Assembly: GCF_013122565.1 (NCBI RefSeq)
Contig: NZ_CP053258.1
Source: Escherichia coli
GTDB taxonomy: Bacteria > Pseudomonadota > Gammaproteobacteria > Enterobacterales > Enterobacteriaceae
DNA: 64,000 nt
Reading direction: 5' to 3' (one strand)
Under the pieces are notes generated by a model that did not search any database, was not told the origin of the DNA, and saw only the letters and a list, made by a program, of their open reading frames with translations. Made by a program: the position numbers and the translations under genes. Positions within the stretch are counted from its first letter, which is position 1. Every line of letters begins with the position of its first letter. Shown here one piece after another: positions 5,897 to 21,773 of the stretch.

Positions 5897-6976
5897 ATGC
5901 AAACACTTGCCGATTTACTGAATACGATCCCTGCTATCGATCCTGCCGCTATGTCGCGTGCACAACGGCATATTGACGGGTTACTCAAACCTGTTGGTAG
6001 CCTTGGAAGGCTGGAGGCGCTTGCCATACAACTGGCAGGAATGCCGGGGTTGAATGGCATACCGTATGTGGGCAAAAAAGCGGTACTGGTTATGTGTGCC
6101 GATCACGGCGTCTGGGAGGAAGGGGTCGCTATTTCCCCAAAAGAAGTGACAGCCATTCAGGCTGAAAATATGACCCGCGGAACAACCGGCGTGTGTGTGC
6201 TGGCAGCACAAGCGGGCGCTAACGTCCACGTAATTGATGTTGGTATTGATACTGTTGAACCTATCCCCGGGCTTATCAACATGCGTGTCGCACGAGGTAG
6301 CGGCAATATTGCTTCAGCTCCGGCAATGAGTCGCCGTCAGGCTGAAAAGTTGCTTTTGGACGTCATATGTTATACGCGGGAGCTGGCAAAAAACGGTGTC
6401 ACGCTGTTTGGTGTAGGTGAACTGGGGATGGCAAACACGACACCGGCAGCGGCAATAGTCAGCACAATCACTGGCCGGGATCCTGAAGAAGTGGTTGGGA
6501 TTGGCGCAAACCTGCCGACAGATAAACTGGCTAATAAAATTGATGTTGTGCGCCGGGCGATTACGTTGAATCAACCAAATCCGCAGGATGGCGTTGATGT
6601 TCTGGCAAAAGTGGGGGGATTTGATTTGGTCGGAATGGCTGGCGTGATGTTAGGCGCTGCTTCCTGCGGTTTACCCGTGTTGCTGGATGGATTTCTTTCT
6701 TATGCTGCTGCGCTCGCAGCCTGCCAGATGTCTCCTGCAATCAAACCGTATCTCATTCCTTCTCACCTGTCGGCAGAAAAAGGGGCGCGTATAGCGCTGT
6801 CGCATTTGGGGCTGGAGCCTTATCTCAATATGGATATGCGTTTAGGTGAGGGGAGTGGCGCAGCTCTGGCGATGCCCATCATCGAAGCTGCTTGTGCGAT
6901 ATACAACAACATGGGCGAACTTGCTGCCAGTAATATTGTTCTACCGGGGAAAACGTCTTCTGATTTGAACAGTTAA
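5897..6976 (+). CDS. cobT: Nicotinate-nucleotide--dimethylbenzimidazole phosphoribosyltransferase
   Basis: 359 aa, [19 protein letters not shown]; third gene of cobUST. Confidence 0.95.
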
Positions 6977-7964: not shown

Positions 7965-8125
7965 CATTCAAAACGTCTGGTTTTTCGGTCTGAGTAAGCA
8001 TTACGTCATGCAGAACAGGTTGTTTCGAATCATACAAATCATAATTTTCTTCTCATATGCGCATCTCTTATGAGCATAATCGTTATACTCTTCTGATTTA
8101 TACATGTTTGCTGATGACATGATCA

Positions 8126-9103
8126 ATGGAAAAGAGAATGACGAAACAGAAAAAAAACAGCCGCTGGCAGGGTTACGATCCTCGCTACATATACTCGCTC
8201 GTGGTCAGACGTTATTTTGCGGATATGAAAACCAAGATTGAGATTGCAGAGGAGCTTGGCGTTTCCCGCTTTAAAGTTGCCAGATTGATCGATGAGGCGA
8301 TCGAACAGGATTACGTGAGGTTTATCTTCCCTAAGCAGCAAGCGATGGATGAAGAAATCGCCAATAATCTACGGAAAAAATTTCATCTGGAAGATGCAAT
8401 TGTTCTTTCAGTTGCTGAATCCTGGACGACGCAAGAAGAACTCAATCACAAATTGGGTGAAGTCACCGCTGAATATCTTATGCAATCTCTTCATGAAGGT
8501 ATGAAAGTGGGGATCGCCTGGGGACGTGTATTATCAAGCACGGTCAGTAAGTTGAGCAAGTTGCCTCCTTTAGACGTTGTGCAGTTATCTGGCGTACATC
8601 CGGGGATAGAGTTTAGTCAAGGGCCAATAGATCTTATTCATAAGATCGCTGCCATTTCGCAGGGAAAAGCGCACCCAATGTACGTGCCGATGTGGGTCGA
8701 TGACGAAGAGCTTGCTGCCAGACTGGCAGGTGATCCTGCGGTATTAGATACACAGCAATATTACTCACAGTTGGATGTGGTTATCACCGGGATAGGTGAC
8801 TGGAAATCAGGTTCTTCAAGCTTGTATAAAATATTTCCGGATACCTGGTGCGAAGCTTTGTTTCAACAAGATATCGCTGCGGATGTGTGTATCTCGTTGG
8901 TCAACAGGGAAGGGAAGATTCTTCATAGTCCTATTGAACGTCTGGGATTTGGCATTTCGACGGATCAACTACAAAAAGCCAAAAAAGTGATTGGTGTCGC
9001 TGGAGGAGAAGAAAAATATGAAGGCATTCTTGCTTCGCTGAAATCCGGACTTTTGAATGTCTTAATTACTGATTTTGATACGGCCATTAAACTTCTGGAT
9101 TAA
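8126..9103 (+). CDS. SorC/DeoR-family sugar-binding transcriptional regulator
   Basis: 325 aa; N-terminal HTH (IEIAEELGVSRFKVARLI) followed by a sugar-binding-like domain; true start may be 8138 (MTKQKK). Confidence 0.75.
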   Translation: MEKRMTKQKKNSRWQGYDPRYIYSLVVRRYFADMKTKIEIAEELGVSRFKVARLIDEAIEQDYVRFIFPKQQAMDEEIANNLRKKFHLEDAIVLSVAESWTTQEELNHKLGEVTAEYLMQSLHEGMKVGIAWGRVLSSTVSKLSKLPPLDVVQLSGVHPGIEFSQGPIDLIHKIAAISQGKAHPMYVPMWVDDEELAARLAGDPAVLDTQQYYSQLDVVITGIGDWKSGSSSLYKIFPDTWCEALFQQDIAADVCISLVNREGKILHSPIERLGFGISTDQLQKAKKVIGVAGGEEKYEGILASLKSGLLNVLITDFDTAIKLLD

Positions 9104-11842: not shown

Positions 11843-12190
11843 TTCATTTTGCCTGTCGTTAAGTAACTAAAGCCAAGTATGCTGTTGGTAAATATTGGTT
11901 GTCAATTGAGATCTAAATCACAAAATTTATAACTGATTGATTTTTAATGAATTAAAAACCAATAAAAACAAATAAAAAATAAATTAAGCCAATTAAAACA
12001 AAGTAGGCTTGCACAAGCACTTTGCAATTAATAATAAAAACACATTAAATATCAATCATATATATGAATTGCCAAACATTGTCTTTATTGGGCTTATTTG
12101 TACTTTCTACAGTTAGTGTTTGTTTTTGTTTGCATCATCTGTGCTATGCTTGGCGTTTTCTAAGATGGGCAATAGATTTCAGGAGGAAGG

Positions 12191-12946
12191 ATGTATCTGG
12201 TTGATGAAAGGCGAAAGTTAATACTTGAAGACTTAATGTCGGCAGGTACGGTCTATGTCAGTGATCTTGCACGAAAGTATGAAGTAACGTATGAGACCAT
12301 CAGGAAAGATTTGACCCATCTTGAACAAAAAGGGCTGCTGATCAAAAGCCATGGTGGGGCGACTTTAAAGCAAAGGGCCATAGAGCATCCCTTTCAGGTC
12401 AGGGAAAAAGAAAATAACTCTTATAAGAAGGCGATAGCTCGTAAAGCGCTTGATTTCATTCCGCCTAATAGTTCGATGATTATCGGTACGGGCAGTACCA
12501 CTTTTGAGCTGGCTAACCTGTTATGTATGAAGTCTGGGTTTAAAATCTTCACAGATTCGCTCCCCGTTGCCAGTGTGTTGATTGAATCTGACAATCAGGT
12601 TTTTCTCTTTGGCGGCGAACTGCGTAGAAAGAGTTCCTCAGTGTTTGGGGGGTGGGCGGTATCTATGATCAACGATATACATGTTGATCTCTGTTTCATT
12701 GGAACCGACGGCTTTAGTAACATGACTGGTCCATCGACGCCTTCTTCTTCTGATGCGTTTTTGGATCGCACGATAATTTCGCACTCAGACAAAAAATATA
12801 TCCTCGGTGATTACACCAAGTTTGAGCGCAGCAGTTTGTTTAAGATCTGCGACTGGTCGGAGATCACCGCCCTTATTACCAACGATCATGCCGACAAAGA
12901 GGGGATTGCCGAAGTCGCAAAATACACGTCAGTAATAACCTGTTAG
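12191..12946 (+). CDS. DeoR/GlpR-family transcriptional regulator
   Basis: 251 aa; N-terminal HTH (VYVSDLARKYEVTYETIRKDL) plus DeoR-type sugar-phosphate-binding C-domain; divergent from the first PTS operon. Confidence 0.8.
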   Translation: MYLVDERRKLILEDLMSAGTVYVSDLARKYEVTYETIRKDLTHLEQKGLLIKSHGGATLKQRAIEHPFQVREKENNSYKKAIARKALDFIPPNSSMIIGTGSTTFELANLLCMKSGFKIFTDSLPVASVLIESDNQVFLFGGELRRKSSSVFGGWAVSMINDIHVDLCFIGTDGFSNMTGPSTPSSSDAFLDRTIISHSDKKYILGDYTKFERSSLFKICDWSEITALITNDHADKEGIAEVAKYTSVITC

Positions 12947-13123
12947 AACTCCCTACAACACGCCTTCTCCCTTCGAATCAGCTTTGCCAAATGTAATCAT
13001 TTCCAAATTATCAAGTGAGCATCCATGGTGATGCTTGCTTAGCGCCCTTTATTGAATGCATCCTCTGCATATTGCCAGTTGCACCTCATTTTTTGCGAAG
13101 AAATCATTTTTTGAATCACGGTT

Positions 13124-13263
13124 TGCTCATATGAGCATAAATGCTGTCGCCATTATGTGCTTTTTTGTGATCTGGATTTAATTTCTCAGATCTCGTCATT
13201 TATCCACAGGATCGTTGTGCTATAACTGCTCATATGAATATTGTTCAATGCTCATGTGAGCAT
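13124..13263. promoter_or_regulatory. Candidate operator: palindromic tgctcatatgagca-type sites upstream of the second PTS operon
   Basis: Perfect 14-bp palindrome tgctcatatgagca at 13124-13137; related half-site tgctcatatgaa at 13227-13238 and near-palindrome tgctcatgtgagca at 13250-13263. Confidence 0.45.
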
Positions 13264-13284
13264 TGTGGGGTGAGGGGGAAGGAT

Positions 13285-13728
13285 ATGATATCGATCAGTG
13301 TTGCCGATGGTGCGGGACTACAGAACTACGATGCCGTGCTTGAACATATTTATAACACGCATCGTGAAACGAATACGGTGAAAGAGAGCTGGCTCAATGC
13401 TATGCGTAAACGCGAAGCGGAATATCCGACAGGAATAGAACTGGAAGGTTATTCTATCGCTATACCACACTGTGATAGTGAACATGCGAATCAACCGGCT
13501 ATTTATATCATCCGTCTGCCAGACGCAATACCTGTGAACAGGGCTGATGAAGATGGAATATTGTGGGTCAGACTCGTCGTTAATCTTATTGTTACGGATC
13601 CTGCTGACCAGCTTCGATTGTTAAAGTCATTATTTAACCATCTCCAAAATGAAGAATTTTACCAAAACTTACTGACACTTCCCGTCGATGATGCAAAAGC
13701 ACTTTTTGTGTCCAAAATAATCCAATAG
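13285..13728 (+). CDS. PTS EIIA component (EIIA-2 type)
   Basis: Phospho-His region YSIAIPHCD; start placed at the ATG at 13285 with a gggggaagga RBS; the track ORF starts at 13234 inside the palindromes. Confidence 0.75.
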   Translation: MISISVADGAGLQNYDAVLEHIYNTHRETNTVKESWLNAMRKREAEYPTGIELEGYSIAIPHCDSEHANQPAIYIIRLPDAIPVNRADEDGILWVRLVVNLIVTDPADQLRLLKSLFNHLQNEEFYQNLLTLPVDDAKALFVSKIIQ

Positions 13729-13746
13729 TAAAAACTGGAGTTTATT

Positions 13747-14040
13747 ATGATTAATATTCTTGTTGCTTGTGGTAGCGGTGTCGCTACATCTACGCTTGCT
13801 GCTGATGAAGTGAAGTCAGTATGTGCTGAATATGGTATTACGGCATTTAAAATCAACAAATGCAGTATGGCTGAACTTTCTTCTGAGATGGCTCATGCAG
13901 ATATTGTACTCACAACTAATAACTATAAAGGTGATATTGGGAAACCACATATGAGTGTTGCAGGTTTTGTAACGGGTATTAATGAAGGAGCATTACGCAA
14001 GAAATTAGGAGAGTTATTAACTGAATTAGCAAATAGCTAA
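13747..14040 (+). CDS. PTS EIIB component (galactitol-type)
   Basis: 97 aa, MINILVACGSGVATST phospho-Cys motif. Confidence 0.8.
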   Translation: MINILVACGSGVATSTLAADEVKSVCAEYGITAFKINKCSMAELSSEMAHADIVLTTNNYKGDIGKPHMSVAGFVTGINEGALRKKLGELLTELANS

Positions 14041-14060
14041 ACCTGACAGGAATAATAAAA

Positions 14061-15314
14061 ATGGAAATGTTGAAAAATTTAATGGAAACCATCACCGGAA
14101 TGGGGGCAACTGCAATACTGCCGCTGGTGATATTTATTTTAGGTCTGGTGTTCAGAATGAAACCAGGTGCCGCGATCAAGTCGGGCATCACAGTCGGTAT
14201 TGGTTTTATTGGTTTAGGTTTGGTTGTTGGTTTATTAAATAGTTCATTACAGCCAGCTATTGAGTATTACTCAAAAGTAGGTAGTGGTTTTACGGTTGCA
14301 GATATTGGTTGGCCAGCAGTCGGTGCTGCTGCATGGGTAGCACCTTTTGCCGCATTAGTGATACCAGTTGGCATCGTACTTAACCTGATACTGGTGCGCC
14401 TGAAATTAACCAAAACGTTAAATGTTGATATCTGGAACTATATGCATTTTTTAGTTCCGGGCGCTCTGGCATATTTTGTGTTCGACAGTTTTATCATCGG
14501 CTTCTCTGTCGCGGTGGCTTTGAGTATTGCGGCTCTGTTTATTGGCGATTTGATTGCGCCCAGATGGCAAAAATATTATGGACTCGAGGGAACAACCTGT
14601 ACCACGATGATTCATATCGGCTGGACTCTACCGTTCGCCTGGGTAGTAAATAAAATCATTGATTACATCCCAGGGTTAAATAAGTTAGATGTTGATTTAA
14701 ACAGCGTGCAAAAACGCCTGGGTGTCTTTGGTGAACCTGCAATTATCGGTGTTATCGTTGGCGCATTACTCGGAGTTTTAACGAAACAGGCAATTACCAC
14801 AATTGTTCCCATGGCGATGGGGGTTGCTGGCGTAATGGTATTATTGCCTAAAGTGGTCGGTGTGCTGATGGAAGGTCTTAACCCGATTGGGAAAAGTGCT
14901 AAAGAAATCATGCAAAAACAGATGGGTAAAGATGCAGAATTAAACATCGGTATGGATTGTGCACTGGCGTTGGGGGATCCGGCTACGGTCACCGTGACAG
15001 TAATTACCATTCCTTTAACCATGCTATGTGCTCTGGTATTACCTGATATTAAGATCTTCCCAATCGGCGTATTGATGTCAATTATTTATATGACCACCAT
15101 GACCGTAATGGCGAGCAACGGTAACGTGATTCGTTCGATTATCTCGACCTTGTTATTCTGCGTTGTAGTGATGTATTTAGGCGGTTATGTCGCACCAGGG
15201 GCAACGCAATTTTTAGCTGGAGCCGGTGTAGGCTTGCAAGGACAAGGTACTGATTTTGTATTAACCGGCCCGTGGGAAATTTTAACCTATTGGTTGAGTA
15301 CCGTATTACATTGA
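14061..15314 (+). CDS. PTS EIIC permease, galactitol (GatC) family
   Basis: 417-aa polytopic membrane protein following IIA and IIB. Confidence 0.8.
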   Translation: MEMLKNLMETITGMGATAILPLVIFILGLVFRMKPGAAIKSGITVGIGFIGLGLVVGLLNSSLQPAIEYYSKVGSGFTVADIGWPAVGAAAWVAPFAALVIPVGIVLNLILVRLKLTKTLNVDIWNYMHFLVPGALAYFVFDSFIIGFSVAVALSIAALFIGDLIAPRWQKYYGLEGTTCTTMIHIGWTLPFAWVVNKIIDYIPGLNKLDVDLNSVQKRLGVFGEPAIIGVIVGALLGVLTKQAITTIVPMAMGVAGVMVLLPKVVGVLMEGLNPIGKSAKEIMQKQMGKDAELNIGMDCALALGDPATVTVTVITIPLTMLCALVLPDIKIFPIGVLMSIIYMTTMTVMASNGNVIRSIISTLLFCVVVMYLGGYVAPGATQFLAGAGVGLQGQGTDFVLTGPWEILTYWLSTVLH

Positions 15315-15336
15315 TTTAATAATCTGGAGTTTTAAC

Positions 15337-15981
15337 ATGGCAAAAATATTACCTTCTATATTTGGCGCGGATATTTTACGCCTGAAAGATGAAATTCATT
15401 TTCTGGAAGAGGAACAAACCGAAATATTGCACGTTGATTTAATGGATGGCACTTATGTCAGTAATATTGCCTTTGGCCCAAATCAAATAGCAGCAATGAA
15501 AAAAGCCAGTTCGATGATCTTTGATGTGCACATGATGCTGGCAAATCCTGAGCGACATATTGATGATGTAATCAATACCGGGGCGGAGATGATTTCTGTA
15601 CATTATGAATCGACGCCACATGTACATTATATTATTCAAAAAATCAAAAAAGCGGGTCGCAAAGCAGGTGTTGTGCTTAATCCTGGGACACCTGAATCTG
15701 TCATCGAGTATTTATTAGATGATATTGATTATATATTGTTAATGACAATTAACCCAGGGCAACCAGGCCAGACATTTATTCATAAAAGTCTGGAGAAAAT
15801 CCGTAATACCAAAAAAATGATATCTGGCAGAGATATTCAAATTGAAGTGGATGGTGGCGTTAATCTTGATAATGTAAAACAAGTTAAAGAAGCAGGGGCT
15901 GACCTTATTGTTGTTGGTGGTGCCTTATTTAACAAACAGCCTCGTGAAAGTTATCAGGCATTGAAAATCGCTATTCAGTGA
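15337..15981 (+). CDS. Ribulose-phosphate 3-epimerase family protein (Rpe/AlsE-like ketose-phosphate 3-epimerase)
   Basis: 214 aa with the HVDLMDG signature and TIM-barrel epimerase layout. Confidence 0.8.
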   Translation: MAKILPSIFGADILRLKDEIHFLEEEQTEILHVDLMDGTYVSNIAFGPNQIAAMKKASSMIFDVHMMLANPERHIDDVINTGAEMISVHYESTPHVHYIIQKIKKAGRKAGVVLNPGTPESVIEYLLDDIDYILLMTINPGQPGQTFIHKSLEKIRNTKKMISGRDIQIEVDGGVNLDNVKQVKEAGADLIVVGGALFNKQPRESYQALKIAIQ

Positions 15982-16078
15982 TCACAATCTAAAAATTTCA
16001 CATCCAGTTAAGTGAGGTTTTCGATTTCATATCGGGAGGAAAACCTCAGCTAAAAAATGTCTTTAATGGAGAAAAGTA

Positions 16079-16831
16079 ATGAGTAATTTTGCAGGTAAAG
16101 TGGTTTTAGTTACCGGAGGTGCTCACGGTATTGGCAAAGGGATAGCTAAACAATTTGCTGATCGTGGTGCACATACTGTTATTGTTGACTATAACGAAGA
16201 GAACGGCAAGGCCACTGCAGCAGAGTTAACTTTTGGCGATGTTAAATCGCTGTTTGTTAAAACAGATGTCTCTGATCCACAGGCATTAGTGGATGTACGG
16301 GAAAAAGTATTTGCTACCTTTGGTCGTATTGATGTGTTGATATTAAATGCCGGTGTGGCATTTGCCAATAAAGTTAACAATATTTCTTTTGAGGAATGGA
16401 ATAAGACTATCGCAATTAATTTATCGGGATTATTTAATACCGTTAAGGCGTTTTATGATGATTTCCTGACAAATAAGGGATCTATTGTTTATATCTCATC
16501 GGGATCAGCACTTTCGGGGACTGGAGGCGGTGTGAGTTATCCAGCCAGTAAAGCGGGAGGCGAAGGGTTGATTCGCGGTCTGGCGAAGGAGTTAGGACCA
16601 AAAGGCGTCAATGTTAATGCGATTGCTCCCCGCTTAATAGACACCGGAGAGATGATGCGGGTCAACTATCCGACACAAGCCGATTTAGACGCTGTCCTGG
16701 AAAAAATACCCGTCCGTCGTCTGGGAACTATCGATGATGTGGCTAACCTGGCAATATTTTTGGCAGATAAAGATAACTCTTATATTCAGGGACAAACCAT
16801 TTTAATGGATGGTGGCCGGACTATTGCTTAA
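16079..16831 (+). CDS. Short-chain dehydrogenase/reductase (SDR) family oxidoreductase
   Basis: 250 aa with Rossmann motif TGGAHGIGKG and a YxxxK active-site region (YPASK). Confidence 0.8.
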   Translation: MSNFAGKVVLVTGGAHGIGKGIAKQFADRGAHTVIVDYNEENGKATAAELTFGDVKSLFVKTDVSDPQALVDVREKVFATFGRIDVLILNAGVAFANKVNNISFEEWNKTIAINLSGLFNTVKAFYDDFLTNKGSIVYISSGSALSGTGGGVSYPASKAGGEGLIRGLAKELGPKGVNVNAIAPRLIDTGEMMRVNYPTQADLDAVLEKIPVRRLGTIDDVANLAIFLADKDNSYIQGQTILMDGGRTIA

Positions 16832-16846
16832 AAAGGGAGAGAAAAA

Positions 16847-17407
16847 ATGAGTGTTCAGGAAAATACTATTAATATTCTGCATGAATTAGAGAGTAATGCG
16901 CTGAAGATTGACGATGCTCAGGCTTCACAGTTCATTTCGCAAATCAGAAATGCCCGGCATATTTTTTTGCAGGGAGCTGGTCGCAGTGGCATTGCTATTC
17001 GCGCTTTTGCTAATCGCTTGCTGCATTTAGGTTTTTCAGTAAGCGTTGTGGGAGAAATATCATCACCGCATACTCAACCTGGAGATCTATTAATTATTGG
17101 GTCAGGCAGTGGTGAAACTACCAGTTTGAAAAGTCTGGCACAAAAAGCAGTTGATAGCGGAGTAAACGTCGCTCTGGTAACTATGAAAGCTGATTCAACG
17201 ATCGGTAAATTAGCTCAATCTGTGTTGGTACTACCAGGAAGTGTGAAAGACGATAACAATCGTGTTGCAGGCGCTTTCGCGCAACCAATGGGCTCAGCTT
17301 TTGAGCAACTCTGCTTTATTACTTATGATGCAATTGTTCTGGAGTTGATGTCTGAACTGGGTGAAAGCAGTGCCACAATGTTTACCCGACACGCTGATCT
17401 GGAATGA
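16847..17407 (+). CDS. SIS-domain sugar-phosphate isomerase (6-phospho-3-hexuloisomerase-like)
   Basis: 186 aa; single SIS domain (FLQGAGRSGIA); size and layout resemble HxlB-type PHI. Confidence 0.7.
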   Translation: MSVQENTINILHELESNALKIDDAQASQFISQIRNARHIFLQGAGRSGIAIRAFANRLLHLGFSVSVVGEISSPHTQPGDLLIIGSGSGETTSLKSLAQKAVDSGVNVALVTMKADSTIGKLAQSVLVLPGSVKDDNNRVAGAFAQPMGSAFEQLCFITYDAIVLELMSELGESSATMFTRHADLE

Positions 17408-17465: not shown

Positions 17466-17541
17466 TGGCTCCTCTGACTGGACTCGAACCAGTGACATAC
17501 GGATTAACAGTCCGCCGTTCTACCGACTGAACTACAGAGGA
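17466..17541 (-). tRNA. asnV: tRNA-Asn (GUU)
   Basis: 76-nt reverse complement of the E. coli tRNA-Asn sequence; position between ldtA side and nac. Confidence 0.95.
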
Positions 17542-19873: not shown

Positions 19874-19949
19874 TGGCTCCTCTGACTGGACTCGAACCAG
19901 TGACATACGGATTAACAGTCCGCCGTTCTACCGACTGAACTACAGAGGA
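19874..19949 (-). tRNA. asnU: tRNA-Asn (GUU)
   Basis: Identical 76-nt tRNA-Asn sequence (reverse complement). Confidence 0.95.
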
Positions 19950-21697: not shown

Positions 21698-21773
21698 TCC
21701 TCTGTAGTTCAGTCGGTAGAACGGCGGACTGTTAATCCGTATGTCACTGGTTCGAGTCCAGTCAGAGGAGCCA
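21698..21773 (+). tRNA. asnW: tRNA-Asn (GUU)
   Basis: TCCTCTGTAGTTCAGTCGGTAGAACGGCGGACTGTTAATCCG...GAGCCA read directly on the plus strand. Confidence 0.95.

Follow-up and report, generated by a model that had tools for sequence, protein, structure and literature searches.

Palindromic sites before a galactitol-type PTS operon of Escherichia coli as candidate operators of a non-adjacent SorC-family regulator

A set of palindromic sites built on the half-sites GCTCAT/ATGAGC precedes a galactitol-type PTS operon (operon 2) in an accessory island of E. coli, and comparison of loci shows that these sites are conserved in sequence and spacing and co-occur with a SorC-family gene rather than with a DeoR-family gene. 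We consider it likely that the palindromes are the operators of this SorC-family protein, which would repress operon 2 at its transcription start. The SorC gene stands at the far end of the island, and an independent module of a DeoR-family regulator and an rpiB-IIC-IIB-IIA operon lies between it and the proposed target. Since the motif tracks the SorC gene across otherwise unlike loci, the regulator at the left end appears to act on the operon at the right end. The first-pass annotation had left the choice between DeoR and SorC open; the evidence favours SorC and speaks against the adjacent DeoR gene.

The island and its palindromic sites

The sites lie inside an accessory island with ldtA on one side and a tRNA-Asn gene on the other. 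The island is carried by 233 of 5426 complete E. coli genomes (about 4%), LF82 among them, and the cobT gene of the window (the whole stretch of 64,000 nucleotides that was analysed) is 99.4% identical to sequenced E. coli strains. Three tRNA-Asn (GTT) genes occur within 4.3 kb around nac, cbl and yeeO (17466-17541, 19874-19949 and 21698-21773); the island adjoins the first of them, and an integrase was not seen inside the island. Table 1 summarizes the features of the island. The SorC gene is about 4-5 kb from the proposed operators, and the DeoR-family gene ends 60-340 bp from them; the gap between the latter gene and operon-2 IIA, which holds O1 to O3, is 338 bp long. The regulon has as its shared core an rpe-like epimerase and an hxlB-type isomerase, so the pathway may be one of hexitol or ketohexose phosphates. 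A literature search found no characterisation of the gene cluster; the psicose locus of K. pneumoniae (PMC6020474) and the sorbose operon of CFT073 (PMC2831201) were considered and are different loci.

Table 1. Features of the island, with positions in the window unless another locus is named
Feature	Sequence	Position	Strand	Score, basis or remark
Two overlapping degenerate palindrome copies	CTTCTCATATGCGCAT and CATCTCTTATGAGCAT	8049..8077		13.7 and 14.5 bits
Predicted -10 of SorC promoter	TATACT	8084..8089	+	inference
SorC-family regulator gene		8126..9103	+	proposed palindrome binder; RefSeq start 8138
Operon 1: rpiB/lacAB-type isomerase, IIC, IIB, IIA		11842-9155	minus	ORFs, NCBIfam
Direct repeat in rpiB/deoR divergent region	TTGGTaaataTTGGT	11885..11899		only exact match in window
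Second copy of repeat	ACCAAtaaaaACAAA	11958-11972		possible further one at 12119-12133
Repeats in other loci		L011 5790-5930; L022 6835-6855; L023 6745-6765, 6827-6842; L024 6815-6835, 6889-6905
DeoR/GlpR-family regulator gene		12191..12946	+	NCBIfam AgaR-like matches, below cut-off
O0, degenerate distal operator (proposed)	ATTATCAAGTGAGCAT	13007..13022		10.0 bits in E. coli
O1, strong auxiliary operator (proposed)	TTGCTCATATGAGCAT	13123..13138		25.4 bits
O1', possible fifth, weak site	TCGCCATTATGTGCTT	13147..13162		conserved alignment block; low matrix score
CRP-like box (predicted), TGTGATC	TGTGATCTGGATTTAA	13166..13181	+	left half perfect, right half 2/5
Extended -10 element of operon-2 promoter (predicted)	TGcTATAAC	13218..13226	+	cross-genus conservation
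O2, weak half-operator (proposed)	CTGCTCATATGAATAT	13226..13241		13.4 bits; overlaps predicted transcription start
O3, strong half-operator (proposed)	ATGCTCATGTGAGCAT	13248..13263		24.0 bits; leader, about +15 to +30 from predicted start
Operon 2 (galactitol-type PTS), proposed target		13285..17407	+	ORFs, NCBIfam, RefSeq annotation of orthologous loci
Operon 2 IIA		13285-13728	+
Operon 2 IIB		13747-14040	+
Operon 2 IIC		14061-15314	+
Operon 2 rpe-like epimerase		15337-15981	+
Operon 2 SDR dehydrogenase		16079-16831	+
Operon 2 hxlB-type 6-phospho-3-hexuloisomerase		16847-17407	+

The perfect 14-bp palindrome reported earlier at 13124-13137 (TGCTCATATGAGCA, the core of O1) was confirmed by sequence reading and by pattern search. 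The core of O2 (TGCTCATATGAAta/TGCTCATATGAATA, 13227-13240), which had also been recognised, differs from the palindrome at two positions, and that of O3 (TGCTCATGTGAGCA) at one; O3 had been placed at 13250-13263, and the site is present there with its coordinates shifted by one base, the 14-mer spanning 13249-13262 and the 16-mer 13248-13263. The similar motif described before the SorC gene proved to be two degenerate copies with cores TTCTCATATGCGCA (8050-8063, two mismatches) and ATCTCTTATGAGCA (8063-8076, three mismatches). A pattern search of the 64-kb window returned these five sites as the sole matches with at most three mismatches, in two intergenic regions only.

Raw counts of the half-site TGCTCAT, or of the palindrome with up to three mismatches, are not significant alone; it is the low-mismatch count, the matrix scores and the location that make the sites significant. 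The 12-mer core GCTCATATGAGC with at most one mismatch was observed twice against an expectation of 0.14. A weight matrix trained on non-E. coli sites only (18.8 bits) gave six top matches in the window, of 25.4, 24.0, 14.5, 13.7, 13.4 and 10.0 bits, followed by 6.6, and all six fall in the deoR-IIA gap or the region upstream of the SorC gene. About 3e-4 matches of at least 24 bits are expected in 64 kb; the chance of at least 13.7 bits in the 163-bp gap upstream of the SorC gene is about 1e-3, and the per-region probabilities are about 1e-3 or lower. Because the top scores of a Markov-shuffle null reach about 12.7 bits, the sites of 13-14.5 bits are convincing only by virtue of their location. 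No report of the motif was found in the literature, where the matches were all NdeI cloning primers.

A scan for relatives of the DeoR protein found the island complete in Entomohabitans, Citrobacter, Enterobacter, K. oxytoca, Providencia and 'Enterobacter sp. EA-1'. In these six, with gap DNA that is otherwise divergent, the four sites recur with spacings of 116-122 bp (O0-O1), 100-103 bp (O1-O2) and 20-22 bp (O2-O3), and the order in the gap is O0, O1, an invariant TGTGATC, TG-n-TATAA(C/A), and then O2 and O3. The O1-O3 spacing is 120-126 bp across seven genera. The proposal of an operator array at the second PTS operon thus holds, in that the array makes a strong phylogenetic footprint across seven genera. 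The truncated copies of Proteus (L008) and Rosenbergiella (L013) were uninformative, and two MAG loci at 30% identity (L014, L015) were left out as too distant. Among E. coli alleles (12947-13285 compared with L001-L004), the gap is 86-97% identical, far below the flanking core genes (cobT about 99%), which points to several island alleles or to recombination; the flanks of the sites vary but their cores do not change. Strain EC5502 has a 12-bp deletion adjoining O1, and its O1 reads TGCTCATGTGAGCA.

The individual sites are conserved in different ways. O0 is unchanged among the E. coli variants; its position in other genera holds a full palindrome, GCTCATAAGAGC, and the equivalents in Citrobacter, Enterobacter, Klebsiella, Entomohabitans and EA-1 score 19-24 bits. 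The core of O1 is kept while its flanks diverge, both within E. coli and across genera. In O2 the left half alone is conserved, with GCTC..TG invariant across genera. In O3, CTCA..TGAGCA is invariant in nine taxa, and the centre alternates between CATGTG and CACATG, which are mutual reverse complements; such a flip fits a symmetric protein dimer on DNA and not an RNA element. O1' has an O2-like consensus in other genera, ATGCGCTTATGTGATT, and appears in three genera as a three-mismatch match 26 bp downstream of O1; because its matrix score is low, we list it tentatively as a fifth, weak site. The centres of O2 and O3 are 22 bp apart in the window and 20-22 bp apart in all 11 further SorC-bearing loci, distant ones included, a variation of 2 bp. 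The O1-O2 distance of 103 bp corresponds to about 9.8 helical turns and O1-O3 to about 11.9, and hence the phasing is approximate only.

Two observations concern the surroundings of the array. In the Providencia island (L009 6754-7254), operon-2 IIA is lost and O2 is degenerate, with O0, O1 and O3 retained. Also, a palindrome-like sequence, AACCACATATGAGTGT, lies within the IIB gene of operon 2 (13943-13958); it scores 5.9 bits in E. coli, 10.8 bits in Entomohabitans (L005 7779-7794) and 14.3 bits in Providencia (L009 7450-7465), and could be an internal operator or plain coding constraint.

The sites had been described as overlapping the start region of IIA. This was not upheld: by RefSeq annotation of the orthologous genes, and by alignment with other genera, the start is ATG 13285, which follows a Shine-Dalgarno sequence, so that the whole array precedes the coding region. 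The longest IIA ORF opens with the ATG at 13234, but that ATG belongs to the CATATG of O2. A simple promoter and terminator scan of 12900-13350 gave no convincing sigma-70 promoter and no terminator, and TGcTATAAC was not called by it; the position of the operon-2 promoter was inferred from cross-genus conservation, not from a consensus scan. TG-n-TAT is invariant in all Enterobacterales, and TG-n-TATAA(C/A) stands directly before O2. A -10-like hexamer directly precedes O2 also in Rouxiella (TATGAT) and Glaesserella (TATTAT). As this holds for every PTS-type locus, the O2/O3 pair should cover about -6 to +30, which is a repressor position.

Between O1 and the predicted promoter lies the CRP-like box. 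Its TGTGA is invariant in nine sequences, Rouxiella included, and its right half is TTTAA in E. coli and TATAA elsewhere. Its centre is 47.5 bp before the start of the -10 element, or about -59.5 to -61.5 from the predicted transcription start, and CRP may bind there; in a class I CRP-dependent promoter a 22-bp TGTGA-N6-TCACA site would be centred near -61.5. A good CRP-like site, TGAGATCTAAATCACA, was also observed in the promoter region of operon 1 (11906-11921), adjoining the TTGGT repeats, and Gilliamella has a perfect TGTGATCAAGATCACA in the same place (L023, about 6785-6800). With CRP-like sites at both PTS operons, both may therefore depend on CRP.

Co-occurrence of the motif with SorC-family and DeoR-family genes

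The SorC-family protein carries PF04198, which was recorded for all homologues, and has NCBIfam matches to B. subtilis DeoR and to LsrR. Its full-length matches are K. pneumoniae SorC (2w48), B. subtilis DeoR (8r7y) and LsrR (4l5i). Five loci in which a SorC orthologue occurs without a DeoR-family gene in the 8-10 kb of flanking DNA examined still carry the motif in their regulatory region: Glaesserella (L016, 62% identity to the SorC protein of the window), Rouxiella (L018, 60%), an unassigned lineage with an MFS transporter and an FGGY kinase (L020/L021, 61%), L025 (45%) and L026 (40%). In the first three, operon 1 is absent and the SorC gene adjoins operon-2-type genes. In the SorC-only loci the motif occurs in tandem, as a weak site 20-22 bp from a strong one, and the transporters differ (PTS, MFS or ABC). 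For example, Glaesserella has ACTCATATGATT-N10-ACTCATATGAGC directly before the IIA start, and Rouxiella has TGCTCATGTGTTA-N10-GCTCATATGAGC. Since homologues with as little as 40% identity retain the recognition helix SRFKVAR unchanged, the motif was predicted in more distant homologues, and L025 and L026 were picked on this basis. In both, SorC stands beside SIS-FGGY-ABC transporter-rpe genes, and a perfect GCTCATATGAGC is accompanied by a weak partner at 20-21 bp.

On the other hand, in Thermophilibacter, E. faecalis, Gilliamella and Paenibacillus, orthologues of the DeoR-family protein (62-74% identity) occur where both the palindrome and SorC are absent. These DeoR-only orthologues are always divergent from an operon-1-type rpiB-IIC-IIB-IIA cluster, and the four loci, from three phyla, share the repeats TTGGT-N5-TTGGT(tGTCAA) and ACCAA-N5-ACCAA in the divergent region. 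The motif is therefore found in every SorC-bearing locus examined and is absent from all four DeoR-only loci, where the absence of either regulator gene was checked within flanks of 7-10 kb. The motif does not follow the DeoR-family orthologues as a DeoR/GlpR operator should, and the DeoR-family regulator is probably not the palindrome binder. The pairing of SorC with the motif and of DeoR with the repeats thus divides the island into two interleaved modules, one of SorC and operon 2 and the other of DeoR and operon 1.

The TTGGT/ACCAA repeats, which have a 10-bp period, are a candidate operator of the DeoR-family regulator. In E. coli, Enterococcus, Paenibacillus, Gilliamella and Thermophilibacter they occupy the region that separates the gene of this regulator from the divergently oriented rpiB-PTS operon. 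A search of the rpiB/deoR divergent region did not find the GCTCAT palindrome; another palindrome there, TCATATATATGA, in AT-rich DNA, was judged to be a chance occurrence. In Gilliamella (L023 367-6712), IIB, IIC, rpe, SDR and hxlB genes are fused behind operon 1 with the DeoR-family regulator alone, SorC gene and palindrome being absent, which suggests that the two E. coli operons serve one pathway. In E. faecalis (L022 7888-13724), the DeoR/operon-1 module is flanked by an operon of a second galactitol-type PTS with YjbQ, rpe and SIS genes, headed by a PRD/Mga-type regulator and not by SorC. The second module would thus be under different regulator families in different lineages.

The idea that one regulator serves both ends of the island finds support in the tracking of SorC by the motif, to a lesser degree for the SorC promoter than for the PTS operon. 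The 8049-8077 block is unchanged among E. coli variants, and eight taxa share TACTCT without change at a distance of 6-7 bp past the ATGAGC half-site; the invariant TAyACT box there is probably the -10 element. In other genera the right half-site ATGAGC(A/G) alone is conserved at this promoter. Because full-site scores are reached in E. coli only, and because the two copies are 13 bp apart instead of the 20-22 bp of the tandem, we regard the block as a candidate autoregulatory site; autorepression is plausible but less secure than the control of operon 2.

Proposed mechanism and alternative explanations

The core operator would be the tandem of O2 (weak) and O3 (strong) directly after the extended -10 box, covering the predicted transcription start and the early leader of the IIA-IIB-IIC-rpe-SDR-hxlB operon. 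On the model of the SorC-family repressors with solved structures, a tetramer (dimer of dimers) would occupy O2/O3 and block RNA polymerase, and a phosphorylated pathway intermediate would release it. O1 and O0, at conserved distances of about 103 and 220 bp upstream, would serve as auxiliary operators, which probably raise the local repressor concentration or loop around the CRP-like box; looping or cooperative recruitment through these two sites is plausible. The weak site over the SorC promoter would probably give autorepression. A more elaborate scheme can be drawn, which we regard as a speculative and rather doubtful extension: the SorC tetramer reaches over the DeoR module to an array of four to five operators, a 103-bp loop between O1 and O2/O3 contains a segment bent by CRP, O0 and O1 act as roadblocks to read-through from deoR, and the two repressors provide AND-type logic for one pathway spread over two PTS operons. 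If true, the SorC family would thereby gain its first described looped architecture with multiple operators.

The same SorC-family protein could bind these sites mainly as an activator, or in a dual role, with O1 and O0 activating. K. pneumoniae SorC is reported to serve as both an activator and a repressor. The positions of O1 and O0, near -100 and -220, are upstream of the core promoter, and the lack of a recognisable -35 box means that the promoter probably needs an activator. However, the conserved CRP-like box can explain activation, and what all loci retain, even those whose upstream DNA is only about 100 bp long, is the O2/O3 tandem just behind the -10 box, in a repressor position; we therefore hold a mainly activating role to be unlikely. 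Assignment of the palindromes to the adjacent DeoR/GlpR-family repressor, with multi-site looping like that of E. coli DeoR at deo, would account for the position of its gene, whose stop codon is 60 bp from O0 and 177 bp from O1 with no terminator predicted before IIA. It would also agree with the multiple palindromic operators used by E. coli DeoR and GlpR. It is nevertheless very unlikely in view of the loci compared above: the four DeoR-only loci lack the palindrome and have the TTGGT-N5-TTGGT repeat, which the rpiB/deoR region of the window has too, the five loci without a DeoR-family gene in the fetched flanks carry the palindrome, and the operon-2-type genes of Gilliamella, under DeoR alone, do without it.

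The palindromes might instead belong to a global or unlinked regulator (LTTR, Cra or Mlc) or have no regulatory role, as a leader RNA hairpin or a chance NdeI-type palindrome; the whole of this group we take to be highly improbable. The T-N12-A palindromes bear a loose resemblance to LTTR boxes, and L018 and L025 have LysR-type genes in their flanks, but such genes are absent from the E. coli island, L016, L020 and L026, and SorC is the sole regulator common to all palindrome-bearing loci. O3 can form a small hairpin in the leader, but the fold of the leader is unremarkable (z = -1.23) and Rfam gave no match, and an RNA element was rejected on these grounds; O0 and O1 are moreover outside the transcript, and the centre of O3 flips its orientation between genera. 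Chance is excluded by the matrix statistics together with the conservation.

Relation to known systems and significance

The operator of a SorC-family repressor comprises two neighbouring half-operators that differ in affinity, fits within 39-45 bp and is bound by a tetramer; in B. subtilis DeoR and CggR the tetramer is a dimer of dimers and the operator overlaps the promoter or leader, and phosphosugars relieve the repression (PMC11229326). When compared with B. subtilis DeoR at dra-nupC-pdp and CggR at gapA, with spacings read from the operator sequences published in that paper, the regulator has the same N-terminal HTH and PF04198 domain, and its proposed target has a strong and a weak dyad half-operator, with about two helical turns between them, over the predicted promoter or early transcript. 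Tetramer binding with a phosphosugar effector would be expected by this analogy. The differences are in the half-site, which is GCTCAT/ATGAGC in the window and TTGAA...TTCAA or CGGGAC...GTC for DeoR or CggR, and in the additional strong single palindromes that lie about 103 and 220 bp upstream and have no described counterpart in either system. Also unlike those systems, the regulator gene in E. coli is not adjacent to the proposed target operon.

The combination of a promoter-proximal operator with auxiliaries about 100 bp or more upstream is shared with lac O1/O3, gal OE/OI and deo O1/O2/OE, and a CRP-like box between operators is found in lac (O3-CRP-O1). The repressor, however, is of another family, and looping is suggested by the constant 100-103 bp, a distance not demonstrably in phase. 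Like the operators of E. coli DeoR, GlpR and AgaR, the sites would give local control of PTS and sugar-phosphate operons, and a gene of that family adjoins the array; in contrast to such operators, the motif does not travel with the DeoR-family orthologues, which appear to use TTGGT direct repeats. The system as a whole is of a well-known type, a local sugar-catabolic repressor and its operators. What would be new is the motif and its assignment to this SorC subfamily, the non-adjacent wiring and the array of four to five sites.

The motif and the regulator make a testable pair for an uncharacterised SorC subfamily that is conserved across Enterobacterales, a Pasteurellaceae genus and more distant, taxonomically unassigned homologues, and that is predicted to control rpe/hxlB-type sugar-phosphate pathways, including that of the accessory island of LF82. 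Assigning the operator to the nearest regulator gene would mislead here, as two modules are interleaved. The motif may be used for defining the regulon, for building inducible reporters to find the sugar, and for annotating similar loci.
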